This document shows positions 2,692 to 64,000 of a stretch of DNA of 64,000 nucleotides, piece by piece. The DNA lies in NCBI GenBank assembly GCA_019695215.1, contig JAIBAK010000007.1, positions 1,149 through 65,148 on the forward strand, written 5' to 3'. The notes under the pieces are model-generated. The model ran no database searches, was not told the DNA's origin, and worked only from the letters and a program-made list of their open reading frames with translations. The stretch is from Bacteroidia bacterium. GTDB taxonomy: Bacteria > Bacteroidota > Bacteroidia > UKL13-3. The number at the start of each line of letters is the position of its first letter. Position 1 is the stretch's first letter. Both the position numbers and the translations under genes were made by a program.

Positions 2692-2726
2692 AAAAAAGCC
2701 CGGTGAGATTCATCGGGCTTTTTTAA
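2692..2726. terminator. Bidirectional rho-independent terminator shared by eno (+) and the convergent minus-strand operon
   Basis: AAAAAAGCCCGGTGA-GAT-TCATCGGGCTTTTTT has a 9-bp stem with an A6 run before it and a T6 run after it. It overlaps the stop codon of the minus-strand gene ending at 2723. Confidence 0.75.
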
Positions 2727-3406
2727 TCCTTTATTGGGATTAAACGGATATTGTCTATATCAATAAGAATAAAGCTTTTCACGGTCCCTTTCATCTTCTT
2801 AAATGTAATAATATCACCGTTAGGAATACCGCCAATATATATGAAATCTTGCCGTTCGTTAAGGAAAAATGTGATTGTATCTGTAAGTGTCACCCATTTT
2901 CTTTTTGGGAAAAAAGAGCTGTCGGGCGTATAAAGTGGATGATGAGTGCCACATGAGTTTTCCTTCCCAAATTCATTTGGATTTTTTAACAATCCATAAT
3001 TCAGTAGCCGATAGTTTAATTTATTGGTAGCGTACTTTGAATCCTCAGAAGTTCGCACATCTATTTTCAAAACAAAACGCCTTGGCCCAGAATTCCCCCA
3101 ATTTGTATCCAGAGGAAGTACTATATCCCCTTTTAAGTTTGCATCAGCATGTTTGTATAAACTGTTTACATGCCATAAATAGATAACCGAATAAACTTCC
3201 CCGTCCGAAGCTGTATCAGATACTGGTTTACCTTTACTTTCTTTGACAAAACCAGCAGGCCCGTTTATATAATAAATGGGCCCATTAACAGAATACATCT
3301 CCGCATTTTCCACGTAAGTTTCAAAGCTCCCATTCTTCACAATATTCTGCGATGTTACACTAAGACTGATCATGCAACAAAGAAAAACTGCTAAGGTTTT
3401 TACCAT
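2723..3406 (-). CDS. Hypothetical secreted protein with an N-terminal signal peptide. It is the last gene of cassette 1 and a candidate immunity protein for the upstream effector-like gene.
   Basis: MVKTLAVFLCCMISLSVTSQ is a signal peptide. Its start overlaps the end of the upstream gene by 7 nt. No recognisable catalytic motif. Confidence 0.55.
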   Translation of the reverse strand: MVKTLAVFLCCMISLSVTSQNIVKNGSFETYVENAEMYSVNGPIYYINGPAGFVKESKGKPVSDTASDGEVYSVIYLWHVNSLYKHADANLKGDIVLPLDTNWGNSGPRRFVLKIDVRTSEDSKYATNKLNYRLLNYGLLKNPNEFGKENSCGTHHPLYTPDSSFFPKRKWVTLTDTITFFLNERQDFIYIGGIPNGDIITFKKMKGTVKSFILIDIDNIRLIPIKD

Positions 3407-3969
3407 CTTGTATTAGTAATTATTCTACCAATTTGTTTAAATCTAGTGTTAGAAGTGCCACTACAAAAAATCTGAATCTCCACCTTTGATACATTATCAA
3501 CAATAAACTCATTACTCTGTTCAACCTCAGATTGTGTAATATTAGTAATTGTAAAGCCCCCTGCCCATCCGCTTCTTGGTTTCTGTGTTATTATACCACG
3601 AGAAAACTGTGATCTAACATTATCAGCCCGATTCTGTGATAAATTAACTCGCCTTAATAAATCTGCTAGCCCTTCCGGTGTTTCATAATCAATAGTTGCA
3701 GAAAGAACCATTTTACTCGTTATATAAACAGCATCTTCACTAAGGATAAGGGAATTGAGCGTGTTCAGACCTGCCAGTTGAGTCTCATTAAGAATAGCAC
3801 TCCAATTTGGAAAATTTATAGACGCTATTGGCAAGGGGTCAAGGGGTCTTGTCAAAAAATTTCCATCCCTATTTTCTGGTGCTATCCCAAAATCAGCCTT
3901 AAAGCTAGAGAGCCAATCTTCTGATAACCTTCCCCCTTTTGCCCACGGATTTTTAAATTCGAATGCCAT
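3400..3969 (-). CDS. Effector-like protein E1. It has the conserved N-terminus MAFEFKNPWAKGG shared with E2 and E3, followed by a unique C-terminal region of unknown function.
   Basis: Its N-terminal 12 aa and the junction with the upstream gene (stop, 2 nt, ATG) are conserved with the genes at 8268-8831 and 9797-10324. No signal peptide. Confidence 0.6.
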   Translation of the reverse strand: MAFEFKNPWAKGGRLSEDWLSSFKADFGIAPENRDGNFLTRPLDPLPIASINFPNWSAILNETQLAGLNTLNSLILSEDAVYITSKMVLSATIDYETPEGLADLLRRVNLSQNRADNVRSQFSRGIITQKPRSGWAGGFTITNITQSEVEQSNEFIVDNVSKVEIQIFCSGTSNTRFKQIGRIITNTRW

Positions 3970-5692: not shown

Positions 5693-6682
5693 TTATGAAC
5701 TATAGTTATGAATAACTTTATGATTAAACACATAGCCGTTGCGAGTGGTAACGGTTACGTAATACAATCCGGAGCTTGAAATAAAAGGGAGTGCCAGCAT
5801 ATTTCTATTATCAATATGGGAAGATTGAACAACCCGTCCCATTAAATCTGTGATAACTATTTCAGTAATTGCATCCTGTTCACACAAATATTTTATTTCA
5901 AGATTCTCCATTACCGGGTTAATAATTTCAGGTATGACAGAACTTATTGGTGAAGAAACTCCTGTCGGGTTAGCTTTACCTGCCAAAATATTTATCTCCG
6001 CCTGTGTTAATATCCTGCTATAAAATCTGGCTTCGTCAAGTTTACCGTCATACCAATGCCCCATATTTGTATTAGTTAAACTCTGTGGTGTCGCATCGGG
6101 CACTTTCCCCGCGAACGAAACAGTCTTCACTTTTGCAGCGTCTATATACAAATCAATTACGGAAGTACTTCTGTTCACGTTTATTGATAGATGATGCCAC
6201 TGATTATCTAAAAGGGCTGTATTGGTATAGAGCAATTCCGCCTGGTCCGACAGAAAACTTGCTCTAATAATAAAATCAAATTGCCCCTTTACAAACTCAT
6301 TTGCAATTAAACTGACTCCCCTGTCATAAGGAGCATCAGTAGCATATAAAAAATCAATTTCATTTTGGTCATTTGTCATAAACCAGAATGAAATATTAAA
6401 ACTTGTAGAAGTACCAAAGGAGAGTGCTCCGTTAGAAACATTCATTTTTATTGCTGCATCTGATGAAAACAGCAATGCCTGATTTAGGTTGCTTTTTCTA
6501 TCGTAGGTGAAGTTAACTGTCCCCCCGCTGGCTAAAAATTTTGTAACCGTTGCCCCATTACCGGAAGCATCAGAAAGACTATTTGTAAACGGCAAATACA
6601 TAACGAGGCCCTGAGTGAGATCCTGACAGAAAGCATATCCTGAAATTGTCATTAAGATGATGACCAAATAAACTCTTTTCAT
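5693..6682 (-). CDS. Secreted LamG / concanavalin-A-like lectin domain protein with a C-terminal sorting domain for type IX secretion (T9SS)
   Basis: Signal peptide MKRVYLVIILMTISGYAFCQ. The LamG-like core includes DNQWHHLSINVNRSTSVIDLYIDAAKVKTV and GKLDEARFYSRILTQAEI. The C-terminal ~70 aa (...GLYYVTVTTRNGYVFNHKVIHN) match the T9SS CTD pattern. Confidence 0.7.
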   Translation of the reverse strand: MKRVYLVIILMTISGYAFCQDLTQGLVMYLPFTNSLSDASGNGATVTKFLASGGTVNFTYDRKSNLNQALLFSSDAAIKMNVSNGALSFGTSTSFNISFWFMTNDQNEIDFLYATDAPYDRGVSLIANEFVKGQFDFIIRASFLSDQAELLYTNTALLDNQWHHLSINVNRSTSVIDLYIDAAKVKTVSFAGKVPDATPQSLTNTNMGHWYDGKLDEARFYSRILTQAEINILAGKANPTGVSSPISSVIPEIINPVMENLEIKYLCEQDAITEIVITDLMGRVVQSSHIDNRNMLALPFISSSGLYYVTVTTRNGYVFNHKVIHNYSS

Positions 6683-6783
6683 AAGTACAAACAGTTAATA
6701 TTTTACCCAAAGTTGAAAATAATATTTCACATATGCAACTTTTTTCTCAAAAATTGTTAACTAAGATATACGGCCATTACGAT
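6626..6783 (-). promoter_or_regulatory. Conserved upstream block, copy 1. It covers the putative promoter/operator, the 5'UTR and the first ~19 codons. The 18-nt core AAAATYGTYAACTAAGAT lies at 6749-6767 (plus strand).
   Basis: Near-identical to 8933-9090 and 10426-10563. The core motif recurs at 11148-11165. Each copy sits 62-85 nt upstream of a minus-strand ATG. Confidence 0.55.
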
Positions 6784-6848: not shown

Positions 6849-7520
6849 CTACTCCTTCCATGCTTGCTGAACTTCCTTCAACGCTAATTCCATTAACAAA
6901 AAAATTCGGTTAACAGTCCCCCTTAATTTTTGCAGTTCATCAGGCAGCTCTTTTACGGGATGTGGTCCATCAAAATAAAAATACCAAAAACTTTTTATCT
7001 CCTTATCACTACGCTTAGCTAATAATTCCAGGAAAACACTAGTATCAGATTTTAATTTCTCCTGCATTGCGTGCTGAAAATAACCCACACCATCAGCATA
7101 CCACCTGCCATTGATACTTATATCAATCATTCGGTTGTAATATTGATTTTTGGGTATTACAGTTAATTTAAAAAATGCTTCTACATATAAATAAGCTTTG
7201 TTATATAAGGGGCTGTTGAAATCAGAAACCGGCTCTCCTAAAGGGTCTTTGTCTGAGTATCCAAATAAATGGTTGAACAAGTTAAACGTATTTGGAAAAG
7301 CAGCAAAATATTCTTGTTGATACTTAATTGTATATGGTGAGGAAGATACTTTTTGATATGCCCTTTTTAATTGCTCCGCTTTTTTTATTCCGTTTAACTG
7401 AGTATCCGCAACATTTGCATTTGCAATATTTCGGCAAGTTATATTCGCTGTACAACTTGAAAACAATTGACTAAACAATACTATAATAAATAATTTCATA
7501 TCATCGAATGGGTAGGTCAA
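6849..7520 (-). CDS. Hypothetical lipoprotein or secreted protein and candidate immunity protein. The real start is probably the internal Met at 7499 (MKLFIIVLFSQLFSSCTA).
   Basis: Signal peptide with a lipobox-like SSC. It lies between effector-like gene E2 and the upstream block of cassette 1. Confidence 0.5.
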   Translation of the reverse strand: MTYPFDDMKLFIIVLFSQLFSSCTANITCRNIANANVADTQLNGIKKAEQLKRAYQKVSSSPYTIKYQQEYFAAFPNTFNLFNHLFGYSDKDPLGEPVSDFNSPLYNKAYLYVEAFFKLTVIPKNQYYNRMIDISINGRWYADGVGYFQHAMQEKLKSDTSVFLELLAKRSDKEIKSFWYFYFDGPHPVKELPDELQKLRGTVNRIFLLMELALKEVQQAWKE

Positions 7521-7557: not shown

Positions 7558-8256
7558 CTATTGAGGTTCTACTTTGAACCACCATTTAGATTTAGGATGC
7601 CCGCTTGTAATCTTAAAAACTAATTTGCTTACTCCCTTCAAAGGTATAGTTACAGTTTGTATACTGTTAGTATTAGTCATTTCTGTTTTATAAAGTTGTA
7701 ACCCATTTTTATCTTCTACTATCAGCTGGTCTGATTCATTGTAAAAATGATAACTCAACCTTATCGCTGTTACTTTGCCAGTGAGTTGCAGTTCTTTTAC
7801 GCTGTTTCCTTCGCCAAGATAGGAATCCTCTTTATTAGCATCTGGAATTCTTTCATACTTTTCAACGATACACTCTCCATAATTAAAACAGATTTTTAGT
7901 AATTTACCTGTACCTCCTTTTATATACAGGGTAAGTTCCGCACTGGAATCGTGAAAGGTGACGTTCGTAGTAAACTTCCTGTTCTTTAAGGTTATTTTTT
8001 TATCCTTGGGATCATATATCCAATTCCCTTGCTCTATTGTTGGAATTTGGGTAGTAACACTGTAACAATCATTAAGAATTTGGTAATTGCCATCAGGATT
8101 AAATACTAACATATCAGGACACTCAACTGCTTGCTTTTTACTATTCTCAACACCCTTATATTGCCATCTACCGATTATTTTATGAGAAGCATTTTGAGCA
8201 TAGGCAATACCGCTTATCAACAATGCAATCAGAATAAAATTTACACCTGTTTTCAT
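7558..8256 (-). CDS. Hypothetical secreted protein with a signal peptide. It lies immediately downstream of the M23 effector and is a candidate immunity protein.
   Basis: MKTGVNFILIALLISGIAYAQ is a signal peptide. It is co-oriented with E2 at an 11-nt spacing. Confidence 0.55.
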   Translation of the reverse strand: MKTGVNFILIALLISGIAYAQNASHKIIGRWQYKGVENSKKQAVECPDMLVFNPDGNYQILNDCYSVTTQIPTIEQGNWIYDPKDKKITLKNRKFTTNVTFHDSSAELTLYIKGGTGKLLKICFNYGECIVEKYERIPDANKEDSYLGEGNSVKELQLTGKVTAIRLSYHFYNESDQLIVEDKNGLQLYKTEMTNTNSIQTVTIPLKGVSKLVFKITSGHPKSKWWFKVEPQ

Positions 8257-8267
8257 ACTTATATCGA

Positions 8268-8831
8268 TTAGGGTCCAAAGAAATATGGTGTTGGGTCAAC
8301 CCATTTGCCTCCTATCATTACCTGAACATGAATATGTGGTGTTATATCCTTGGGATAACCCAAATCTCCTAAATTAGCGGCCGTTCCTATTAATGTTTTT
8401 CCCCCAATTACAGTGTATGGACTCCATGCATTGATTTCACTAGGAATATTTACATATAAAATTCTCACTTTCTCAATCTCAATTGCAGAATCTGAAGGTG
8501 TAATATCTATCATTGGTTTTCCAGATGATGAGCCAATATAATTTACCGCTTTCCCAGTTACTGGAGATACTAAATCTTGCCCAACTATGGTTAAAATATC
8601 TATACCCATATGTTTACGGGCACCTCCGCTACGAGGAGCACCAAAGTGACCATTCCCATATGCATCCTGCCCCCTCAAAGCACCTCCACTTGGGTTGAAT
8701 AATAAGCTTACATCCGTGATATTCCTTTTAATAGGTATAACTGCCCCCTCTAGTGCCGTACCATTTATTCCAAACCATTTATCAAACTCTCTGTTACCTT
8801 TTCCCCAAGGGTTTTTAAATTTCAATGCCAT
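8268..8831 (-). CDS. Effector-like protein E2. Conserved N-terminus MALKFKNPWGKGNREFDKWFGINGTALEG... fused to a C-terminal M23 (LytM/lysostaphin-type) metallopeptidase domain.
   Basis: H-x-x-x-D motif (RKHMGIDIL) and an HxH motif in TPHIHVQV, aligned with the M23 consensus GPHLHFEV, at the spacing typical of peptidase M23. N-terminal 36 aa almost identical to E3. No signal peptide. Confidence 0.7.
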   Translation of the reverse strand: MALKFKNPWGKGNREFDKWFGINGTALEGAVIPIKRNITDVSLLFNPSGGALRGQDAYGNGHFGAPRSGGARKHMGIDILTIVGQDLVSPVTGKAVNYIGSSSGKPMIDITPSDSAIEIEKVRILYVNIPSEINAWSPYTVIGGKTLIGTAANLGDLGYPKDITPHIHVQVMIGGKWVDPTPYFFGP

Positions 8832-8833
8832 AT

Positions 8834-8989
8834 TTATTCGGGATTTGAGGTTGGATTACAATTACACCAGCTTTGAGGAACATCGCAACAATAAGTAAAC
8901 CCCTTTTTGTATAAGGTGGTGGCATGATTAGTACAGAAAAGAGAACCCGAAATTGTAATTAAAAGCATGACCAAATAAATTCTTTTCAT
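8834..8989 (-). CDS. Unannotated 51-aa fusion ORF: MKRIYLVMLLITISGSLFCTNHATTLYKKGFTYCCDVPQSWCNCNPTSNPE. It joins the signal peptide of the LamG gene to the Cys-rich tail of the 560-aa gene.
   Basis: Read on the minus strand. ATG at 8989, TAA at 8834-8836, then AT, then the E2 ATG. Residues 1-19 match the LamG N-terminus and residues 24-51 match the 560-aa C-terminus. Its first 81 nt are identical to the ORF at 10327-10482. Confidence 0.6.
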   Translation of the reverse strand: MKRIYLVMLLITISGSLFCTNHATTLYKKGFTYCCDVPQSWCNCNPTSNPE

Positions 8990-9090
8990 AAGCACAAACA
9001 GTTAATATTCTATCCAAAGTTGAAAATAATATTTCACATAAGCAACTTTTTTATCAAAAATTGTCAACTAAGGTATACGGCCATTACGAT
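8933..9090 (-). promoter_or_regulatory. Conserved upstream block, copy 2, with the core motif at 9056-9074
   Basis: Aligned with copies 1 and 3. It sits upstream of the fusion ORF and E2. Confidence 0.55.
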
Positions 9091-9168: not shown

Positions 9169-9768
9169 TTACCAAGTGTAATTTTTTATATCAAACCTTT
9201 CAAGAAAGGTTATTTTCCATCTTCCTTTTTCCTTTTTCGCTTTAACAAGGTAATCAAAATCGCCTCCCCATGTCCAATAATAGGTTGCAAAGTCATTATC
9301 CAATTTAATATTCTTAATCATTAATCTACTCCATATATCCGAAGGGTAATCCTGACAGTTACACCATTCGTCAGCATCATTTCCGTAAGGAGGTAATTCT
9401 CCTTTATAGTATTTAACCTGGTTATCATTTAGTTCTTTGTCTAGGTACAACGCAATTTTCATGTAGTTATCTATAAATTCCTGAGTAAAGAAATTTGTTT
9501 GGGATAATTCTTCCATTCTGGATTTCTGAACAAGCCAATCAATCCGCTCATAAATGCTGTCATTATCACTTGTAAGAGGGAAATCTCTATTGGTGTCAAC
9601 CTCATGCCACTTCAACAAATTCTTTGTTAAAGCCAAAAGTTCTAAACTATCAGTAGATAACTGTATATAGGCATGGCTATTTGTACCTGTGTCTTTCTGA
9701 GTATGTACACAACTAAAACTAATTACAAGTATTGAAACTGCTGATACCAGGCCATTAAATAATTTCAT
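9169..9768 (-). CDS. Hypothetical lipoprotein and candidate immunity protein for E3
   Basis: MKLFNGLVSAVSILVISFSCVHTQ is a signal peptide with a lipobox Cys. It lies directly downstream of E3. Confidence 0.55.
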   Translation of the reverse strand: MKLFNGLVSAVSILVISFSCVHTQKDTGTNSHAYIQLSTDSLELLALTKNLLKWHEVDTNRDFPLTSDNDSIYERIDWLVQKSRMEELSQTNFFTQEFIDNYMKIALYLDKELNDNQVKYYKGELPPYGNDADEWCNCQDYPSDIWSRLMIKNIKLDNDFATYYWTWGGDFDYLVKAKKEKGRWKITFLERFDIKNYTW

Positions 9769-9796: not shown

Positions 9797-10324
9797 TCAT
9801 GAGTTATTGTCAGTCCAACGGAATATTGCGTACATAGAATTTCTATACCCACTTCCGGGAAATTCGTTTTTCTCCTTAAAATCACTTAACCATTGATTAC
9901 CGTTGTACATATCAATATGACCATACTGGCTACCCCCGGGATATGGTTGAAACACCCTTATATCTCCTTTAATAGGTGAATAATTTGTACTACTTAAAGT
10001 ATTGAATCCCCAGCCCTGCAAAAAAGGTCCATAATCTTTTGCGGATACTGGATGAGGGTTTGTATTTATACCGCCCGCTTCTAAAGCTAATCTGACATAT
10101 TTAGCACATGCGTGCTGAGAAACTACTTTAGCATTATTGTCTAACCAGTTTACAGCTTTGTCAATATTGAAACTCGATTGGAATCCACCCACATTAACAT
10201 TACCACCATCCGAAATATCTCTTTTAATAGGTATAACTGACCCCTCCAATGCCGTACCATTTATTCCAAACCATTTATCAAACTCTCTATTACCTTTTCC
10301 CCAAGGATTTTTAAAGGAAGCCAT
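9797..10324 (-). CDS. Effector-like protein E3. Conserved N-terminus MASFKNPWGKGNREFDKWFGINGTALEG... with a C-terminal putative CHAP/NlpC-P60-like Cys-His hydrolase domain.
   Basis: A candidate catalytic Cys (SQHACAKYV) and a candidate His (GDIRVFQ...GHIDMY) sit at the spacing seen in CHAP amidases. The domain call is tentative. Confidence 0.55.
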   Translation of the reverse strand: MASFKNPWGKGNREFDKWFGINGTALEGSVIPIKRDISDGGNVNVGGFQSSFNIDKAVNWLDNNAKVVSQHACAKYVRLALEAGGINTNPHPVSAKDYGPFLQGWGFNTLSSTNYSPIKGDIRVFQPYPGGSQYGHIDMYNGNQWLSDFKEKNEFPGSGYRNSMYAIFRWTDNNS

Positions 10325-10326
10325 AA

Positions 10327-10482
10327 CTACAGAGAATTTGAGCTGGGATTACAATTACACCCACTTTGCGGCACATCGCAACAATCAGTAAACACCTTTT
10401 TGTATAAGGTGGTGGCATGATTAGTACAGAAAAGAGAACCCGAAATTGTAATTAAAAGCATGACCAAATAAATTCTTTTCAT
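10327..10482 (-). CDS. Unannotated 51-aa fusion ORF, copy 2: MKRIYLVMLLITISGSLFCTNHATTLYKKVFTDCCDVPQSGCNCNPSSNSL
   Basis: Same architecture as 8834-8989. The stop TAG at 10327-10329 is followed by 2 nt and then the E3 ATG. Confidence 0.6.
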   Translation of the reverse strand: MKRIYLVMLLITISGSLFCTNHATTLYKKVFTDCCDVPQSGCNCNPSSNSL

Positions 10483-10563
10483 ATGCTAAACTTTAAGATT
10501 ACAGTCAAAGTTGAGAATAATATTTCACATTCGCAACTCTTTTTAAAATCGTCAACTAAGATG
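10426..10563 (-). promoter_or_regulatory. Conserved upstream block, copy 3, with the core motif at 10545-10562
   Basis: Aligned with copies 1 and 2. Confidence 0.5.
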
Positions 10564-10612: not shown

Positions 10613-11086
10613 TTATTTATTAGGTGGTAGAATAAAATAATTAGTTAAAAAGATTCTGAAGCATTCAATTTGAGCACCCACTGCTCCAATATCCGCATCA
10701 GTATTATAAAAAGAAGGATTTTGCACCACACTACAAAACGACTCATAAAGCGACCTGTGAGAATTGGTATTATATTGTTGTTCAACTTGAGCAAAAACAG
10801 AGTCAAGTGTATTTTTTTTAATCAACCTGACTAACGGGGTGCCCTTGTTATAAAGAGAAAGATATAAGTCAAAGTACTCCTCATGAATAGTATCTCCATT
10901 AGTTGAACTTTTGTGATAAACTTTGAACAAATCTTTAAATACATTGAACGACTTAGTATCCCTTTCTAATTTTATTGCAACTCTGGGAAGTAGCGTATCA
11001 TTCAAGCAAACGAGTCTTTCCTGCGGATAGCAGATAGCTATATGGTGCAAACTGCCAAAAAGGAAGATGAAAAATAAATGCTTCAT
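10613..11086 (-). CDS. Hypothetical secreted protein with a signal peptide, preceded by a fourth copy of the AAAATCGTCAACTAAGAT motif. Possibly an orphan immunity-like gene.
   Basis: MKHLFFIFLFGSLHHIAICYPQ is a signal peptide. The motif at 11148-11165 lies 62 nt upstream of the ATG. Confidence 0.5.
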   Translation of the reverse strand: MKHLFFIFLFGSLHHIAICYPQERLVCLNDTLLPRVAIKLERDTKSFNVFKDLFKVYHKSSTNGDTIHEEYFDLYLSLYNKGTPLVRLIKKNTLDSVFAQVEQQYNTNSHRSLYESFCSVVQNPSFYNTDADIGAVGAQIECFRIFLTNYFILPPNK

Positions 11087-11222: not shown

Positions 11223-11522
11223 GTGCAGGTAAGGGAAAAAATACAGCAGCATAAGTTCAAAATCATCACTCTGGTGTTTTTGGTATGGATGACTTTTTTT
11301 GATAAAAACAATTTTATCGACCAGTACCACCTGCGTGCGCAGTACCAAAGTATTGTTGACGAACGCGATTATTACGTTACCCAGATTGAGCAGGCCAAAA
11401 AAGAACGCGAACAGCTTTTTACCAATAGCGAGGCTCTTGAAAAATTTGCCCGCGAAAAATACCATATGAAAAAGGATGATGAAGAAGTCTTCATCATGGT
11501 GCAGCCTGAAAAGAAAAAATAA
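11223..11522 (+). CDS. ftsB: Septum formation initiator family protein (FtsB/DivIC-like)
   Basis: A single TM helix (IITLVFLVWMTFFDKNNF), then a coiled coil, then the conserved LEKFAREKYHMKKDDEEVF tail. Confidence 0.7.
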   Translation: MQVREKIQQHKFKIITLVFLVWMTFFDKNNFIDQYHLRAQYQSIVDERDYYVTQIEQAKKEREQLFTNSEALEKFAREKYHMKKDDEEVFIMVQPEKKK

Positions 11523-55150: not shown

Positions 55151-55750
55151 TTGCAGCATATGTTTATTGAGCCGTCATACCATATAACCCATAAAAAGGG
55201 ATGGATTGAAGTCATTTGCGGGAGTATGTTTTCGGGAAAAACCGAGGAACTGATTCGCAGATTAAAACGTGCCCGTATTGCCAATTTACGAGTGGAAATT
55301 TTTAAACCGGCTACAGATACCCGTTATCATGAAGAAAATATTGTATCCCATAACGCCAATTCCATCAAATCAACCCCGGTTGATTCCTCCCTTAAAATTT
55401 TATTAATGGCCAACGAAGTGGATGTAATCGGGATTGATGAGGCCCAGTTTTTTGATGCTGAAATTGTGTATGTGTGCGAAACACTGGCCTCGCAGGGCAT
55501 TCGGGTTATTGTTGCCGGACTGGACATGGATTTTTTAGCCAAACCGTTTGGACCGATGCCCGATTTAATGTCAATAGCCGAATTTGTTACCAAAGTTCAT
55601 GCTATTTGTGTGGTATGTGGTGACCATGCCAATCATTCATATCGCACCATTGCTGATGAAAGCAAAATTTTACTTGGGGAAAAGGATAGTTATGAACCCC
55701 GATGCCGCAAGTGCTTTTCAGAAGGGATGAAAAAACGAAATCAGGTTTAA
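55151..55750 (+). CDS. tdk: Thymidine kinase
   Basis: P-loop [14 protein letters not shown], and the C-terminal Zn-ribbon Cys pairs (CVVCG...CRKCF). Confidence 0.93.
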
Positions 55751-58700
55751 AAATCGGTACTCAGCGATACGTAGTACACCGGATCTTTGCTCAACTGCAT
55801 ATCTTCTATTCCCCAAGCCATGTCGCCACGCACGTAATAGCCAAACAGTTTAAGATGCAGCCCGGCTCCCACACCACCTACCAGAGGTTGGCGTATATTA
55901 ATAATGGTTGCAGTAATAGGATAACGGCTCACCACCCGTTTATTGAAGGTATTATCATCGGCATTTGGCGACTTTCCAGACCAGGCTGTTCCCAAATCAA
56001 AAAAGGGAACAATCATAAAATTTTTCAGAAAATCACTTTTCATCGGGCGATTGGTGATGTACGCAAACAAAGGAAGACGGAGTTCATTATTCATCACTAC
56101 AAATGAACTTCCGTTGCGTATATTTTGAGTAAATCCCCGCAGGTTTGTGGCCAAAGACTGATATACATAATTTTTAGTTGCATCTACCAAAATGTCTTTG
56201 TTGTATCGCGGACTAATCCAGTTATCTACCCCTCCCAAAAAGTAAACCACCCGTGCACTTCCAAATGAAGTATTAGCGCTAAAACGGGTAGCTAAAACCA
56301 ATTGCCTGTGAATTTTTAAATAATTTCGAATATCAATTCCGGCTGTGGCTAAGGTGGTATTTTCTCTCTTTACGTCCTTGTATGTCTCAACAAAAACTTT
56401 ATACCGAAGCCCGTTTAACAGGTTTAATCCTTTATTTACCGTGTTATCGTAAATATATTCAAGTTTCCCCCCGGCCCAGTTTCGCTCTATAGAAGGTCGG
56501 CCTGCATTGAAAATATCTGACGACAGAATATTTGTAACGTCCTGACGCCCGAAAACGTGAAACCTCAGGCAGCTCCGTTCGGTGAATACATACTTTTGAA
56601 TAAACCGTACCTCATTCACTAAGGTCCGCTGGTAATCAAAATCAGACTGCACAAACCGGGAAGAACGGAAATACTGAACCCTCTTATCAACGCGTTTTTT
56701 GTTGTTTTCGTAAGCTAAGAAAACATCGGTGCCTCTCAGGTCAACCGACAACCTGAAACCTCCAATAATCCGTTTATCGTTAAACATATCATTAATCCCC
56801 AGTTTAAACATTCCGTTGAAGCCCGGATTAAAAAATTGAATTGATCCCGGTGTGTACGGCTGGTAATAGGTATTGATTACGGTATTATCGAGCTGTGTTA
56901 CGAAATAATCAGGTAAAAAAACCGACCGGTAGGTACGTGGTGGCGCAAGGCGCAGTTGTTTCTCTTTGCTTATATTTTTTATTACCGGTTGCTCTGCCAG
57001 TATCTGATCAATGTTAAAGTTTTCCCTATTAGTAAACTCATTCAGAAAACGATACTTCATACTATCGGCAGACTGCTTTTGCAGGGAATCCTGCCCATGT
57101 ATTTTAGGTAGCTGCAAAGGCTCATTCTCTACGCTTGTTTGCGTAAGTGTATCTCTTATCCAAAGTGAAGGTACCGGAAATGCTGCTCCCCGTTTGAACG
57201 GCTTTATCTGAAATGATTTTTTATTCCTCCAGTTGGTGTAGTACGTGGCAATATCCTTTGTTTGTTCAGGAATATCGGTAAAGTTCGGGGTTTTGTAAAC
57301 ACGAAGTGAATTTTCGTTGTAAACCAACTCTACCGAAAATGCTGCCGGCACGCAGGCATCATGCGCCAAAACACTCCGGTAATAATTGGTAAGCGGATAG
57401 GTATATGTTTTATTCCGATAGTGAATGATCGTATCCACCCGCTCGGTGAGCGAATCAATGGAATAAACCTTACCTCTCACAGAAAATGACGAGTTTCCCT
57501 GCTGTAACTGAATAAGTGTATCTAAAAAAAGCGTGTCGTTTTTCCTTAACGAGGTATCTTTAGCTATGATTCTTAGCTCGGCAAAATCAAACAAGGGTTC
57601 AACTTTTACCGCATAACGATTTACTACTCCGTTGTAATCGGTAAGGTAACTATAGTAATCGGCATTATAAGGCATGGGAGCCGACTCGTTTACATAAGGT
57701 GTATTGGTAACCCGGTGCAGCAAATCGTCTTCATGTTCCAGATCATAAATGAAAATATCGTAATTATTTTCTTTGGTCAGCACTCCGTCCGAAGGGGCAC
57801 TAAGTGTATCGGATACCCGGTTGGATGCAAAAATAATGCGTTTGCCTTCATCAATATAATGCGCATCTTTATCATCGTAAAAATCATTCGACAGTTGTCG
57901 TTCCCGCTGCGATTTTATATCTAATAAATAAATATCCGATTGTCCTTTACGGGTTCCGGTAAGTAATACCATGTTTCCGCTTGGGTTAAATTCAAATCCT
58001 GTTACTTTATCTAATTTTTGCAACCTGAACCTTTCCTTTTTCCCTGTCTCCAGGTTAATTGTGAGAAAATAACTTGCTCCTTTACGTTCGTAAAAGCATC
58101 CAATTGACTTCCCGTTAGGATGCCACCCTATCAACGGGAAGGATTTATCCTGAATCATATTCCGGTATTTAAATCCACCCCGGTATATTTTTTCTCTTTG
58201 TTTATTGTACAGGTCAATAGTGTAAATTTTATACACTCCGTGATCGTTTGTGGTAAGAAGCAATTTATTCCCCATAGGGCTTAAACTAACCTGAGGAAGC
58301 ATGGTTCTCCTCATTTCTTTACTTAGTTTAATTTCTTCGGTTGGAAGTGTTTTCCCCTGATCGTCCTTTTCATAAATGTGGTTATAAAAAATTTCCCAGT
58401 TATCGGTAAGCTCATGCATGCGCATACCCAGCACATAATAGAAAGAAGACTCAATGTTTCGGGTTACGCGGGTTATGTAAAGTAAATTGGAAACTATGCG
58501 TTCATCATTGCTTTCAATTAAAAATTTCCAGATGGATTTACCTGCAAAAACAGCTTCGTCTTCTGTGAGAGTACTAAACTTTTTGAACCTTCGGGTTTTT
58601 AAAGCGTCCTTCATCCTGCTGTCATCGGCCACGGTCCATCCCTCGGCCAGGTAATTAATAAGTCCGTTGATATACCAATCGGGCAAAGTAAGCAGGGCGG

Positions 58701-59262
58701 CATTTTGAAGTCGGTCGGTAAGGGTTCCGCCATAGAGCATTTCGTTGGCAATTATTTCGGCCAACCCTGCCCGTATTTGCTGGGTAAAATGCTCGTGGTC
58801 TCCGTCAAAAGTTAAAATAACTTTGGTATCGTACACCCGGGTTACTCCGCCTGTATTTATCTGTACCTCGGTCATCCCTATATTACTCTGTCTGAAATCG
58901 GACTGGGTGGTGTAAATAACAAATTCAATGCGTCCGGAAATGCGGTAATCCATTACCTTTTCCATGGCTTTTAAATGTTTTTCGGCCACCTTCATGGCAT
59001 ACACAGCCAGTTCTTTTCCGCCAGTATAAAAGTATGCATCAAAATTTTCGTTGCGGTAAAACTGCCAGTCAAATTTTTCAAACTGCACCCTGTTCTGACC
59101 AAAGTCGGTATACATTCCCTGGGCGGCTGCCTGTTGATGAAAAGAAAACAGCAGTAGCAGGGAACAGAGAATTTTCCTTAAAAACGGGAATATGTTATTG
59201 TTTAAAAAAAGCACGTTCTTCGCAAAGTTATTCTTTAGCTTATTAATTTTCAGAAAAAACAT
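55747..59262 (-). CDS. Large outer-membrane protein with N-terminal PD40/WD40-like beta-propeller repeats and a C-terminal Omp85-like beta-barrel. The start is uncertain.
   Basis: Repeated motifs of the ...[17 protein letters not shown]... type; a C-terminal amphipathic beta-strand region ending in Phe; a signal-peptide-like stretch ([19 protein letters not shown]) about 30 codons after the first ATG. Confidence 0.45.
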
Positions 59263-60040: not shown

Positions 60041-60517
60041 TTACCTGTAGAGGAGCACTGAAGCATAAGCCGCCAATCCCTCTTCCCTGCCAATATAACC
60101 CAATTTCTCATTGGTAGTGGCTTTAATGGAAACTGCATCTTCCGCTATTTCACAAATTGCAGCAAGCACCTTTACCATTGCCGGTATATGTGGATTTACT
60201 TTAGGCTGCTCCAGGCAAATGGTAGAATCAATATTGCTGATTTTATAACCTGCAGTGCTGATTTTAGCAATCACCTCTTTCAACAATAATTTGCTGTCAA
60301 TTCCCTTGTATTTCGGGTCGGTATTCGGAAAATGAAAACCAATATCCCGCATAGCAGCGGCACCAAGTATGGCATCACAAATAGCATGAATCAAAACATC
60401 GGCATCCGAATGCCCTACTGCACCTTTTTCAGTATCCAGTTTTACCCCTCCTAAAAAAAGAGGATATCCTTGCGACAACTGGTGAACGTCAAACCCGAAA
60501 CCTATTCGGATATTCAT
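60041..60517 (-). CDS. ispF: 2-C-methyl-D-erythritol 2,4-cyclodiphosphate synthase
   Basis: IGFGFDVHQL...GHSDADVLIHAICDAILGA. Confidence 0.93.
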   Translation of the reverse strand: MNIRIGFGFDVHQLSQGYPLFLGGVKLDTEKGAVGHSDADVLIHAICDAILGAAAMRDIGFHFPNTDPKYKGIDSKLLLKEVIAKISTAGYKISNIDSTICLEQPKVNPHIPAMVKVLAAICEIAEDAVSIKATTNEKLGYIGREEGLAAYASVLLYR

Positions 60518-61755
60518 TATTTTACTTCAGGAGCCGGTTGTTGCGATTTGAACGCATCAATATCAAATATCATGGTGAATCGCAGGGTATTTTCCAGCGG
60601 GTTGCGTTGCTGAAAAGGAACCAGATAGGCTACATCTAATCCAAATACTTTATAACGCAATCCCGCCCCGAAAGTCATATATTTACGATTGCCTTTGTAA
60701 GGAGATTCGTGAAAATAACCTGCCCGCAGCGCAAATTGTTTATCATACCAGTATTCCATTCCGGCCGAATAATGTACTTCCCTCAACTCTTCCTTTAAGC
60801 CACCGGGTGCATCGTAAAACGATTGCATCATCCCTTTCATAATTGGCTGGTCGGGTGCTTTTCCTTTATCAATTACGGGCACTCCGTTTACCAAACTATC
60901 TCCGTTACCGGCTGCATTTTTTAAATAGTACGGATTTGTGGGAACAAGTAATTTATTTAAGTCAATTCCGAATGAGATGGTATTGTATTCATCAATTTCA
61001 TATGTGCCAAAAGTTCCCAATCGTAAATTAATTGGAATGAAATCTCTGTTTTCGGCAGTGGTATAAGTAATTTTAGAACCAATATTAGTGATAGCTGCGC
61101 CAATCGCATAGTTTACTTTTTTACCCTCAACTTTAAATTTGTTTCGGTAGTACATGGTAATATCACCGGCTCCGGCTATCCCTGCTTTAGCCTGAATTCC
61201 ACTGGAGAGAACTGCATTGGGTGCAAGATTCGAATAGATAAAACGAAAGGCAACACCCATGGAAAGTTTATCGGAAAGCTGGGTTGCATATGCCCCGTCT
61301 AAAGCCCACTCATTGGGTGTGGCACTTCCCGTATTGTTTCCGTAATTATCTGTAAACTGAATATTTCCCAATGAAAAATACCTTAGGGAGCCTGCAAAAG
61401 CCGACCTCTTACCAATTTTAGAATAAGCTGAAATATAGGAAAGCGAAACATCGGGTACCAATTGACGTAACCAGGGAGTATAAGAAAGCGAAACCCCTGC
61501 TTTGCGCTCAATAAATGCCAGCTTAGCCGAATTCCAGTGAATGGAATTCACATCAGGAGATGTGGCAACACCAATATCTCCCATTCCGGCATGACGCGCA
61601 TCGGGTGTAATGGTGAGAAAAGGAACCGCAGTGGTTATCACATTTTGCTGACCCGACAACTGGGCTGTCCTCAGATTCTGCTGACCTTGAGATTTTGTTG
61701 CGAGCAACTCAAACAAAACAATAAATAAAACAAATAACAAACGCTTGATATACAT
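60517..61755 (-). CDS. porV: Type IX secretion system outer-membrane protein PorV (LptO)
   Basis: Signal peptide, then VPFLTITPDARHAGMGDIGVATSPDVNSIHWNSAKLAF, the conserved PorV N-terminal block. About 410 aa, the size of a beta-barrel. Directly downstream of porU. Confidence 0.75.
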   Translation of the reverse strand: MYIKRLLFVLFIVLFELLATKSQGQQNLRTAQLSGQQNVITTAVPFLTITPDARHAGMGDIGVATSPDVNSIHWNSAKLAFIERKAGVSLSYTPWLRQLVPDVSLSYISAYSKIGKRSAFAGSLRYFSLGNIQFTDNYGNNTGSATPNEWALDGAYATQLSDKLSMGVAFRFIYSNLAPNAVLSSGIQAKAGIAGAGDITMYYRNKFKVEGKKVNYAIGAAITNIGSKITYTTAENRDFIPINLRLGTFGTYEIDEYNTISFGIDLNKLLVPTNPYYLKNAAGNGDSLVNGVPVIDKGKAPDQPIMKGMMQSFYDAPGGLKEELREVHYSAGMEYWYDKQFALRAGYFHESPYKGNRKYMTFGAGLRYKVFGLDVAYLVPFQQRNPLENTLRFTMIFDIDAFKSQQPAPEVK

Positions 61756-61795
61756 TATACAAAATTTAAAAGTTCACGAATTTACAACTTATTAC

Positions 61796-64000
61796 CTAGT
61801 TTAAAAGTACCAATTTTTCAAACCTCTCGACTTTCTCTCCGTCAGACGATTTGACCCGTACTTTGTACACATACACCCCTTTAGCCAGTTTATCCCCGTA
61901 TTCATCCCGCCCGTCCCAGGGCACACTGGTAAAATGGCTTTCTGCGGCCATCACATCCTGATTGATGGTTTTAATCAGCTTGCCCGAAACGGAATAAATC
62001 TGAATTTGCACCTGCAAAAATTGTCCGTACTTGTTATGGTCAAATTGAAAAGTGGTGGATGTGGTAAACGGATTGGGATAATTTAACACATGATTTAAAG
62101 CTAATCCTGCCTCTGACGCTACAATAAACTCAAGTGAGGCTTCGGATGAATTATTAAAAACATCCCACGCTTTAAGTTTTATATTATGCACTCCGGGTGT
62201 TAACGAACTGAAATTATATTTTACCTGTCCATTCGTAAAACTGTTAAGATTAGCCTGATAATAATCATTCATGATAATGGATGACTGTACATTTCCGTCA
62301 ATAGTGGCGGTTATTTCCCGTCCAATGCCGTTGCCAGCTGTATTAATTCCGTTTTCGTCAAAAAGTGTAGCCAGAAAAAGCGGAGCTGTATTGGTAGTTC
62401 CTCCGCTTACAAAAGCAAAATCGTTCATATAAAGTTTTATTTGCGGACCTTTATTATCACTGCCCGCAGAATCGGATGTTCCGCCAATAATTAAGTTTGA
62501 ATAGTTACCAGCTGCATCTGTCACTCCATTTTCGGCATAGTAACTTATTTTACCAAAGCCATTCACATACGAAATATCTTTAGGAACAATGAACGAATAA
62601 GTAAATGCTCCGTTGCTCACCGATGCCCTCCCCCTGTAAATAACATTTCGCCTCATCTTATACGTAGTGGGGAAACTCGCCACATCATTTGCCAGTGTAG
62701 TATAAGTTTCTTCCTTATCATAAACAGATACGTAAAGTGTACCGTTAAACCCGTTAAGGTTTTGCCCGTTTATATCCTGAATATTGCCGCTGATGGTAAC
62801 TTTACTCAGCGCTTTAATAGTGTCGGGGATTGAGTTAACTGGCTTCCCGTTAACCGCGGTGGTGACTACTTTATTTTTGGGATATGCCAGCACCATTGCC
62901 GGGTCGCCCAGCAGGGTAAAATTACGGCTGTTAAAATCGGGGGCAATGTTTTTTGCCTTGGCCAATACATCACCCAGTGTCGGGAATTTATTTCCGGGGT
63001 CAGAAAATAAATTATTCTGCAATACATTAATATTTAACAGATAATTCGGAAAGGCAAACACCAGCCTTACTGTTGTAAATAAGCCTATCCCTCCGCCATT
63101 TGGATTAATTAACACTAACTCCCCTGCCGAAGTTCGTTCCGGATCATCGAATTTACTGAACTCGCAGGTGGCAGTGATAAAAAGCGGAAGTGCATTTTTA
63201 TTTGTCCATGCATTTATATCGGATAAAGTTAAAACCTGCTCATGTGCCCATTGTGTTTCACCTCCATGTCCGGTATAATTAATTATTAAACACCCTTTGT
63301 TTACCTGATTGTTTATAGCGGTACGTACATCAGGATAACGGCCTCCCTCGGGGGTGGAAATCTGCTTATAAGAATCAAAAAATATTTTATTGATATTATA
63401 GTTTACATAATCAGTATCAATAATGGCACTTAAATTATTTGACTGGCTCAGGTGAATATTAAAATCTTCATCATCCGCCACAAATGCCACATCATTTCTC
63501 CAGTTGCGCATCGAACTGCTGCTGTAATATGAAATTATTTTATTCACAGCCTGCGCTGCTTCAGTTGTTGATTTTACAGGCAAACGTCCAACCCCTAAGT
63601 CCAAGCCCTCCTCTTTACCAAATTGCTCATCCCAGTATCCTTCTTCCGGATCAAGAAATCCAAAAAAATCGTCAGAGCAATAAGAAGCTGTGGGTGCATA
63701 TGAATTCCGGCTCTCGTAGGTTGGAACAAAATTCCCTTTCCATTTTTTTATATCCCGGTAATCAAAAGATGCATCGCCAAACATGAGCAGATATTTTGGC
63801 TGTTCATTGGTCATTCGTCCTCTTTCATAAAACATTCGCATAAAGTTCCTGACAGAACTTACATCAGGTGTCCCCGAGGAAAACTCATTGTAAATTTGCT
63901 CGGGCGTTACAACAACCACATTCATTCCCGACTGCTGCGTGTGAAAATCGGCTAATCGTTTTGCATCATAAACAAAATCGGGGTACGCCACAATAACCAT
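61796..64000 (-). CDS. porU: Type IX secretion system sortase PorU (C25 gingipain-like peptidase). It is truncated at the window edge, with the N-terminus beyond 64000.
   Basis: Large secreted protein with a C-terminal T9SS CTD (...GVYVYKVRVKSSDGEKVERFEKLVLLN). Sits upstream of porV as in the porU-porV operon. Confidence 0.7.
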   Translation of the reverse strand: MVIVAYPDFVYDAKRLADFHTQQSGMNVVVVTPEQIYNEFSSGTPDVSSVRNFMRMFYERGRMTNEQPKYLLMFGDASFDYRDIKKWKGNFVPTYESRNSYAPTASYCSDDFFGFLDPEEGYWDEQFGKEEGLDLGVGRLPVKSTTEAAQAVNKIISYYSSSSMRNWRNDVAFVADDEDFNIHLSQSNNLSAIIDTDYVNYNINKIFFDSYKQISTPEGGRYPDVRTAINNQVNKGCLIINYTGHGGETQWAHEQVLTLSDINAWTNKNALPLFITATCEFSKFDDPERTSAGELVLINPNGGGIGLFTTVRLVFAFPNYLLNINVLQNNLFSDPGNKFPTLGDVLAKAKNIAPDFNSRNFTLLGDPAMVLAYPKNKVVTTAVNGKPVNSIPDTIKALSKVTISGNIQDINGQNLNGFNGTLYVSVYDKEETYTTLANDVASFPTTYKMRRNVIYRGRASVSNGAFTYSFIVPKDISYVNGFGKISYYAENGVTDAAGNYSNLIIGGTSDSAGSDNKGPQIKLYMNDFAFVSGGTTNTAPLFLATLFDENGINTAGNGIGREITATIDGNVQSSIIMNDYYQANLNSFTNGQVKYNFSSLTPGVHNIKLKAWDVFNNSSEASLEFIVASEAGLALNHVLNYPNPFTTSTTFQFDHNKYGQFLQVQIQIYSVSGKLIKTINQDVMAAESHFTSVPWDGRDEYGDKLAKGVYVYKVRVKSSDGEKVERFEKLVLLN

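Follow-up and report, generated by a model that had tools for sequence, protein, structure and literature searches.

E3, a candidate two-module interbacterial toxin with a Tae3-family amidase domain, encoded in the same island as an unannotated carrier protein in a Bacteroidia bacterium

We analyzed here the 175-residue protein E3 and the effector island that encodes it, within a 64,000-nucleotide stretch of DNA from a Bacteroidia bacterium (Bacteroidota; Bacteroidia; UKL13-3; assembly GCA_019695215.1, contig JAIBAK010000007.1, positions 1,149 to 65,148 of the forward strand), hereafter referred to as the window. E3 is probably a two-module interbacterial toxin, cargo of a 560-residue carrier protein encoded in the same island and paired with the lipoprotein I3. 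Its C-terminal part is, by homology and predicted fold, a Tae3-family Cys-His peptidoglycan amidase. Its N-terminal head carries an F-x-N-P-W motif (the NPW tag), which recurs on effectors with many other toxin domains beside one family of carrier genes.

Results

The enzymatic domain of E3

The kinship of the E3 tail to Tae3 was found both in the sequence and in the predicted structure. A phmmer search matched residues 57-166 to the PDB chain 4hz9_A (E=5.9e-21, 41% identity), and a family profile built from 39 homologues reached the same chain with E=2.7e-40; 4HZ9 is the Tae3-Tai3 effector-immunity complex of Ralstonia pickettii. An AlphaFold2 (AF2) model was built from the homologue alignment, with predicted local distance difference test (pLDDT) values above 90 for residues 51-170. 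The top Foldseek matches of this model were Tae3 chains, with template modelling (TM) scores of 0.90-0.92 on the target (TMt) and root-mean-square deviations (rmsd) of 1.2-1.4 Å (4hz9_A: E=1.3e-10, TMt 0.92, rmsd 1.2 Å). CHAP endolysins, NlpC/P60 enzymes and Tae4 ranked after Tae3 at much weaker scores, the CHAP and NlpC/P60 structures with Foldseek probabilities of about 0.8-1.0 and the Tae4 structures as weak fold matches (E>0.1).

An earlier note, made from the DNA letters, had proposed for E3 a CHAP/NlpC-P60-like hydrolase with a candidate catalytic Cys in SQHACAKYV and a candidate His in GHIDMY. Both residues were borne out: Cys73 (codon 10106-10108) precedes His136 (codon 9917-9919), they align to C23 and H81, the catalytic dyad published for R. 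pickettii Tae3 (PMC11796386), and they are conserved in 35 and 38 of the 39 homologues, respectively, as is Asp148 (9881-9883) in 36. In the model they occupy the papain-like layout of NlpC/P60 and CHAP enzymes, Cys73 opening helix 73-83 and His136 opening strand 136-140. What stood of the proposed class is this superfamily fold, which E3 shares with CHAP and NlpC/P60 enzymes without belonging to their Pfam families; the family itself is Tae3. Membership was rejected for the three Pfam families compared, as E3 gave no match at E<=1 to CHAP (PF05257) or NlpC-P60 (PF00877), and its match to Tae4 (PF14113) reached 13.7 bits against a cut-off of 27 (E=0.069), with the His region alone covered. Among the 39 homologues, CHAP was matched by nine (best 9.2e-07) and NLPC_P60 by two.

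The Tae3-type domain is a toxin domain that moves between delivery contexts. Its homologues are found at the end of Rhs-type proteins (…YYDPxxGRF…DPxG) and of other leaders, and others follow a peptidoglycan-binding domain; some copies are VgrG-annotated fragments, and one homologue lies in a Chryseobacterium island together with a PAAR-like DUF4280 protein. We also observed four Tae3-like proteins of ~120-135 residues, from Mucilaginibacter and others (P0025, P0028, P0033 and P0036), in which the catalytic Cys is replaced by His. The catalytic His is retained in three of the four, at least P0025 and P0036 have a hydrophobic, signal-peptide-like N-terminus, and they may be inactive or repurposed paralogues.

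The head of E3 and its repeat in E2

The earlier note had described an N-terminus nearly identical to that of the neighbouring effector E2, followed by unrelated sequence, and this description holds. Residues 4-28 are 100% identical, one 1-residue indel separates the two heads, and beyond residue ~40 no similarity between E3 and E2 is left. At the DNA level, the heads belong to a 354-nt stretch at 89% identity (10560..10207 versus 9072..8711), which runs from ~235 nt before the E3 ATG to codon 39; this length and identity, beginning well upstream of the starts, make it a repeat and not a chance resemblance. The third effector of the island, E1, shares only MAxxFKNPWxKGxR with the heads of E2 and E3. 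E3 has no signal peptide, and its head is predicted to be disordered (AF2 pLDDT below 50-60) apart from a short helix at residues 12-18. Between E3 and E2, head residues 4-35 differ by five synonymous changes and one non-synonymous change, while the tails of the two short ORFs (open reading frames) that precede these genes, named stub 3 and stub 2, differ by four synonymous and six non-synonymous changes; judging from these substitutions, purifying selection acts on the head and not on the stub tail. The order 157-residue protein gene, E3, I3 was also found on independent metagenome contigs (L091-L093), so the arrangement is not an assembly artefact.

Association of the NPW tag with carrier genes

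We surveyed 1,406 ORFs of at least 100 residues in 85 carrier loci for the NPW pattern at their N-terminus. It was present in 41, of which 31 lie directly downstream of the carrier gene; of the remaining ten, nine belong to additional cassettes of the same carrier arrays, and hence 40 of the 41 tagged ORFs stand beside a carrier or in an array next to one. In most carrier loci the gene that follows the carrier begins with F-x-N-P-W, often 2 nt after the carrier stop codon. Across 50 effectors of carrier loci, whose tails are otherwise unrelated, residues N6 and W8 are almost invariant. The recognisable cargo domains are Tae4 (8), Tlde1/YkuD, glucosaminidase, Trypsin_2 (trypsin-like) and DUF6402, to which the window adds Tae3 (E3) and M23 (E2); most of them act on the cell wall, and no recognisable nuclease was found among the cargo domains of the carrier loci. 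The tail of E2 has the M23-type motifs HMGID and HIH, and its best PDB sequence match is the M23-fold protein LECT2 (E=0.008); E2 is a second cell-wall-acting cargo on an E3-type head. The fixed head with a swapped tail, which the earlier note had read from E2 and E3, thus recurs far more widely, on effectors with many toxin domains beside one carrier family.

Other head types were also observed. A second one, F-W-K-x-Q-W, was found in L005 (3747-5018 and 5531-6858), L012, L015, L017, L037 and L066; in L005, these heads stand behind an internally deleted carrier of 170 residues and a carrier stub of 60 residues. Proteobacterial loci have the head variant L-x-N-x-W-A-C-x-x-W.

Since the head is under constraint and specifically tied to the carrier, we infer that the NPW tag is a docking peptide by which the effector would attach to the carrier. 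Several features of polymorphic toxins are present, namely a conserved N-terminal trafficking part, variable C-terminal toxins and downstream immunity genes; in every locus examined the carrier has an ORF of its own, distinct from that of the effector, so the single polypeptide of a polymorphic toxin is not formed. Frameshift fusion of carrier and effector, which the conserved stop-2 nt-ATG junction had brought to mind, was rejected as a general mechanism, as many loci have gaps of 5-97 nt between the two genes. Carrier-toxin fusions were likewise sought, and the three long homologues that were read carry non-toxin C-terminal extensions, one of them DUF1508.

The carrier family

The carrier belongs to a family of proteins of ~570 residues. 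A first search gave more than 1,000 relatives, and 1,790 cluster representatives at 50% identity were collected, 1,174 of them below 1e-10 and all of them unannotated. They come mostly from Bacteroidota, and also from Acidobacteriota and from Alpha- and Gammaproteobacteria; cultured hosts include Chryseobacterium (C. indologenes), Myroides, Flavobacterium (Flavobacterium sp. JP2137), Galbibacter, Kiloniella and Reyranella. Among GTDB genomes, 225 carrier matches were confirmed. The motifs of the family are strongly conserved across Bacteroidota, Acidobacteriota and Proteobacteria. The carrier matched nothing in Pfam, NCBIfam, PHROGs or PADLOC, and a 56-sequence profile found no match among the PDB sequences. 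The ±8-kb flanks of 84 carrier loci contained no conserved accessory gene and no common VgrG, Hcp or PAAR family.

In the AF2 model of the carrier, which is of moderate quality (pLDDT 69.7), the predicted beta-strands are very long, and they are accompanied by two long helices at the C-terminal end and by a disordered tail rich in Cys. Its recurring weak fold matches are nearly all beta-pore-forming toxins, at TM scores below 0.1, which is a lead and not evidence. The only significant structural match, in BFVD, is an uncharacterised 642-residue Yasminevirus protein (E=4.8e-9, 16% identity). The phage collection held no carrier homologue, and the plasmid collection held a single distant one of 658 residues (22% identity), on the conjugative plasmid pAK76 of Sinorhizobium meliloti (L097, 54489-58361). 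There, the homologue has the relaxase on one side and the VirB genes of type IV secretion on the other, and the next gene encodes an Ntox44 'polymorphic toxin type 44' protein that lacks the NPW head. The literature searched contained nothing relevant to the NPW motif, the carrier or a matching Bacteroidota system.

The immunity candidate I3

The I3 gene starts 29 nt after the E3 stop codon, and its product has a lipoprotein-type signal sequence (...VISFSC). Several observations link the two genes: (i) I3 follows E3 on the same independent contigs mentioned above, (ii) in another locus (L094), relatives of the E3 tail (81% identity) and of I3 (71%) are neighbours, the toxin domain standing behind a different N-terminus, (iii) one protein (P0044) consists of a Tae3-like domain joined to a clear DUF3828 domain, and (iv) the I3 family has an invariant W135-C-N-C-Q-D140. 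Tai3, the inhibitor of Tae3, is a DUF3828 protein and acts by means of a loop in which a QDX motif is conserved. A protein identical to I3 is named 'YbjP/YqhG family protein' by NCBI. I3 is likely the immunity protein for E3, an assignment made plausible by adjacency, co-inheritance and a weak DUF3828/Tai3 similarity; the kinship of I3 to Tai3 and DUF3828, as judged from sequence, is weakly supported.

The stubs and the origin of the E3 cassette

Stub 3, in front of E3, joins the signal peptide of the LamG gene (19 codons), in a single reading frame, to the ~27 codons that end the carrier gene (TLYKKVFTDCCDVPQSGCNCNP...). It stops 2 nt before the E3 ATG, as the carrier does before the ATG of E1. 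The 5' parts of the stubs, and about 80-160 nt in front of them, correspond to the beginning of the LamG gene and the sequence preceding it, at 83-89% (83% between 10562..10426 and 6767..6626, and 89% for the copy in the second cassette). The 3' part of the stub matches the carrier tail, and the match continues through the stop-2 nt-ATG junction into the head (120 nt at 88%). The deletion junction is identical in both stubs. These matches to the LamG start and to the carrier tail indicate that the array consists of three copies of a unit made of upstream region, LamG gene, carrier, effector and immunity gene, of which the two upstream copies are internally deleted. Translated, the stubs would give a signal peptide and a Cys-rich peptide of ~30 residues (…CCDVPQSGCNCNP…). 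Their first 29 codons are identical, and the tail of stub 2 has the radical substitutions V>G, D>Y and G>W. Counts of the terminator scan equalled the shuffled expectation.

Related loci show both simpler and similar arrangements. Stub-plus-effector cassettes also occur in L005, which includes an internally deleted carrier, and in L067. In a sister metagenome-assembled genome (MAG), whose carrier is 88% identical, only one LamG-carrier-effector-immunity unit stands at the corresponding chromosomal site. Both the effector and the immunity gene of this unit differ from those of the window, and the head of its effector is of the E2/E3 type, which is direct evidence of cargo exchange. The closest genomes (L007/L008; Gw_SlAct_bin_253, GCA_020050275.1) have one unit at the DivIC/eno site, with a 266-residue effector of no assigned function and a 145-residue immunity gene, and relative to them the island of the window has expanded.

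Layout of the island and its surroundings

The island covers ~8.4 kb of the minus strand, between a DivIC-like gene (11223-11522, plus) and eno/carA, and its genes are listed in Table 1 in the order of transcription. The family of the 157-residue protein at its 5' end directly follows Tae4-type NPW effectors in two other loci (L027 and L077). In the window no effector gene stands in front of it, and it probably represents either an orphan immunity gene or what is left of a fourth cassette. The 223-residue ORF had no family match in any library scanned, and may be a second immunity gene or unrelated. A strong 15-bp hairpin with flanking A and T runs lies at 2692-2724, between the convergent eno and I1; it resembles a terminator acting in both directions at the end of the island and is the only convincing terminator in it, with nothing comparable after I3 or I2.

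Table 1. Features of the effector island, with their positions in the window
Feature	Coordinates	Strand	Description and basis
157-aa secreted protein, 5' end of island	10613..11086	minus	family clusters with proteins of L027 and L077
Copy of LamG upstream region, before stub 3	10483..10562	minus	presumed promoter region; alignment
Stub 3, 51-aa ORF	10327..10482	minus	alignments to LamG gene start and carrier tail
E3 ORF	10324..9797	minus	175 aa, ATG start; head, Gly-rich linker and Tae3-family amidase domain
E3 head, residues 1-39 MASFKNPWGKGNREFDKWFGINGTALEGSVIPIKRDISD	10208..10324	minus	carries F-x-N-P-W tag; 35/39 aligned positions identical to E2
Tae3-family Cys-His amidase domain of E3 (predicted), residues ~53-170	9815..10168	minus	PDB match, Foldseek, conservation
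I3	9169..9768	minus	199-aa lipoprotein, candidate periplasmic immunity protein; possibly diverged DUF3828/Tai3-like
Stub 2, 53-aa ORF, before E2	8834..8995	minus	deletion junction same as in stub 3
E2	8268..8831	minus	E3-type head and M23/LECT2-like metallopeptidase tail (HMGID ... HIH)
I2, secreted protein, candidate immunity of E2	7558..8256	minus	position downstream of E2 only
223-aa ORF between I2 and LamG upstream region	6849-7520	minus	ORF list
LamG-domain protein with type IX secretion C-terminal sorting domain	5693..6682	minus	first gene of full unit
Carrier, 560 aa	3972..5654	minus	no signal peptide or known domain; Cys-rich C-terminal tail
E1, effector at main position	3400..3969	minus	NPW head MAFEFKNPWAKGG; tail of no assigned function
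I1, secreted protein, candidate immunity of E1	2723..3406	minus	position downstream of E1 only

The rest of the window contains housekeeping genes and PorV, a component of the type IX secretion system (T9SS), followed by a long ORF that runs off the window end (60517-64000, minus). The presence of PorV indicates that the organism has a T9SS, consistent with the sorting domain of the LamG protein. No type VI secretion system (T6SS) genes were found within the window. A 1,171-residue ORF at 55747-59262 (minus) had no Pfam match.

Discussion

Taking the predicted fold and the gene arrangement as a guide, we propose the following mechanism. The C-terminal module of E3 (residues ~53-170) would cut the peptide cross-links of peptidoglycan in the periplasm of the target cell, with Cys73 and His136 as the catalytic residues and Asp148 probably assisting; Tae3 reportedly cleaves the mDAP-D-Ala (meso-diaminopimelic acid-D-alanine) cross-link (Russell et al. 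2012). I3, exported to the periplasm of the producer, would most likely block the active site of E3 and so protect sister cells. The disordered head would dock E3 onto the carrier of the same island, and that carrier would also serve E2 and E1, which would make the whole a polymorphic toxin divided between two polypeptides, of which the carrier is constant and the cargo exchangeable. For the E3-I3 cassette we propose a tandem duplication of the promoter-LamG-carrier-effector-immunity unit and then a deletion within the copy, which spared the promoter region, the signal peptide of LamG and the last 27 carrier codons. Through the ~120-nt tail/head homology, unequal recombination could then place E3 behind the full carrier gene. 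E3 may also be expressed where it stands, using the carrier in trans: the cassette is probably expressible alone because it has retained the upstream region and the start codon.

A number of results weigh against parts of this proposal. I3 matches Pfam DUF3828 with E=0.009 only, below the cut-off, and just five of 32 members of its family have a weak DUF3828 match; the family profile found nothing in the PDB and did not reach Tai3, and its hhalign comparison with the DUF3828 half of P0044 was negative. Several I3 homologues stand alone in their genomes with no toxin nearby, a situation that fits orphan immunity genes without proving it. As for the docking of the head onto the carrier, gene neighbourhood is its sole basis, and the carrier model had no significant Foldseek match in the PDB (best E=0.13). 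A sigma-70 promoter scan performed no better than the shuffled expectation, and such a scan does not model Bacteroidota promoters. Finally, Tae3, Tae4 and Tlde1 were all defined as type VI effectors, so a T6SS route is quite possible.

This last point leads to the question of how the cargo is delivered, on which two views have to be weighed. E3 could be ordinary T6SS cargo, the 560-residue protein being an adaptor or tether that loads NPW cargo onto a VgrG/PAAR/Hcp spike encoded elsewhere. We regard this as a possibility of less than even weight. Besides the Tae3, Tae4 and Tlde1 domains among the NPW cargo, an effector devoid of signal peptide with a periplasmic immunity protein is the classic T6SS pattern, and some homologues of the E3 domain are VgrG-annotated fragments or lie near a PAAR-like gene; tether proteins for cargo encoded downstream, RIX and WHIX, are known from T6SS. 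Against this stand the lack of any T6SS gene in the window, the lack of a VgrG, Hcp or PAAR protein common to the flanks of the carrier loci, the conservation of the carrier motifs across phyla whose T6SS spikes differ, and the distant carrier homologues on a conjugative plasmid and in a giant virus. The other view, which we hold only tentatively, is that the NPW tag and the ~570-residue carrier form a self-contained two-polypeptide delivery system, independent of type VI and other known machines, widespread in Bacteroidota and present in Acidobacteriota and Proteobacteria. The carrier would in that case take periplasm-acting cargo out of the cell and across the outer membrane of the competitor, for instance as a pore-forming or receptor-binding translocator. 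Because of the cross-phylum conservation, the absence of linked machinery and the stray occurrences on a plasmid and in a giant virus, we slightly favour a carrier that acts as the delivery device itself, in a binary bacteriocin-like toxin, over one that serves as a type VI adaptor.

It is unlikely, in our opinion, that the E3-I3 cassette is a silent orphan module serving as a recombination reservoir, in the manner of the orphan cdiA-CT/cdiI or rhs-CT cassettes. Such a role would suit a cassette that lies away from the full carrier gene and has in front of it only a 3' stub of the carrier, with ~120 nt of homology to the main locus, and both the recurrence of stub-plus-effector cassettes in other loci and the relaxed constraint in the stub 2 tail agree with it. 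E3, however, has its own ATG, unlike classical orphans, and is preceded by ~80-160 nt of the operon upstream region and by a translatable stub that ends 2 nt before it. In addition, its head and toxin domain are intact with the catalytic residues in place, and its product could bind the carrier of the main operon in trans. That E3 is a housekeeping autolysin or the remnant of a prophage endolysin, its shared N-terminus reflecting a recent local duplication, is very improbable. CHAP/NlpC-P60 amidases are common among autolysins and endolysins, a PHROG endolysin family is matched by E3 at 1.9e-14, and CHAP endolysin structures are among its fold matches. On the other side, E3 has neither signal peptide nor cell-wall-binding domain, no phage genes lie nearby, and the nearest relative of solved structure is an interbacterial toxin for which a dedicated immunity protein exists. 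Conservation of the head motif also reaches well outside this genome, to toxin domains that are unrelated to one another and specifically to places beside carriers.

If E3 is carrier-borne cargo as proposed, its interest lies mainly in the head and its partner, as the NPW tag is found almost only next to one large carrier family that is unannotated and has neither a known domain nor linked secretion genes. Were the carrier the delivery device, environmental Bacteroidota would possess a new route for antagonizing other bacteria, and the tag and carrier would provide a simple two-part system for protein delivery into Gram-negative periplasms. The island also illustrates an unusual way of building effector arrays, in which operon units are duplicated and then hollowed out, each spare cassette keeping a promoter region and a translational-coupling stub.

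Among known systems, some resemble the E3 arrangement by analogy only. Colicin M-type bacteriocins likewise have no signal peptide, act in the periplasm of the target and are countered by a periplasmic immunity protein, and binary toxins and the cargo peptides of protein compartments also combine a constant delivery part with exchangeable cargo and a short terminal peptide on a flexible linker; the comparison revealed no similarity to these systems in sequence and none of significance in structure, and neither a lysis gene nor a receptor-binding domain nor a shell fold was seen here. Like NPW cargo, the MIX, FIX, RIX and WHIX cargo of T6SS combines unrelated toxin domains with a short N-terminal element that is conserved, and a conserved protein encoded nearby is implied in its loading. 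However, the NPW tag and the 560-residue carrier match none of these elements in Pfam or NCBIfam, and T6SS genes are not linked to the carrier loci.

The orphan cassettes of Rhs and CdiA form arrays of alternative toxin-immunity pairs as well, each after a fragment of the delivery gene that gives homology for recombination. Here, in contrast, carrier and toxin are separate polypeptides (stop, 2 nt, ATG), and the cassettes of the window stand upstream of the full carrier gene and have retained a translatable stub, a start codon and a duplicate of the operon upstream region. The hollowed-out operon cassettes, together with the tag-plus-carrier delivery module, appear to be undescribed in the databases and literature searched.

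The closest resemblance is to Tae3-Tai3 of R. pickettii (4HZ9/4HZB). The catalytic domains share 41% identity, a 1.2 Å rmsd and the Cys-His dyad, and in E3 an immunity-type gene for a periplasmic protein lies directly downstream, with a faint DUF3828 similarity and a QD motif as in Tai3. Whereas Tae3 is a bare T6SS-secreted domain of ~120 residues, E3 adds 52 residues of head and linker that are common to non-homologous effectors, its locus has no linked T6SS genes, and I3 is too diverged for placement in the Tai3 family by profile searches. The toxin domain of E3 is a new member of the Tae3 family, and both this enzyme and its pairing with an immunity gene belong to an already known kind.

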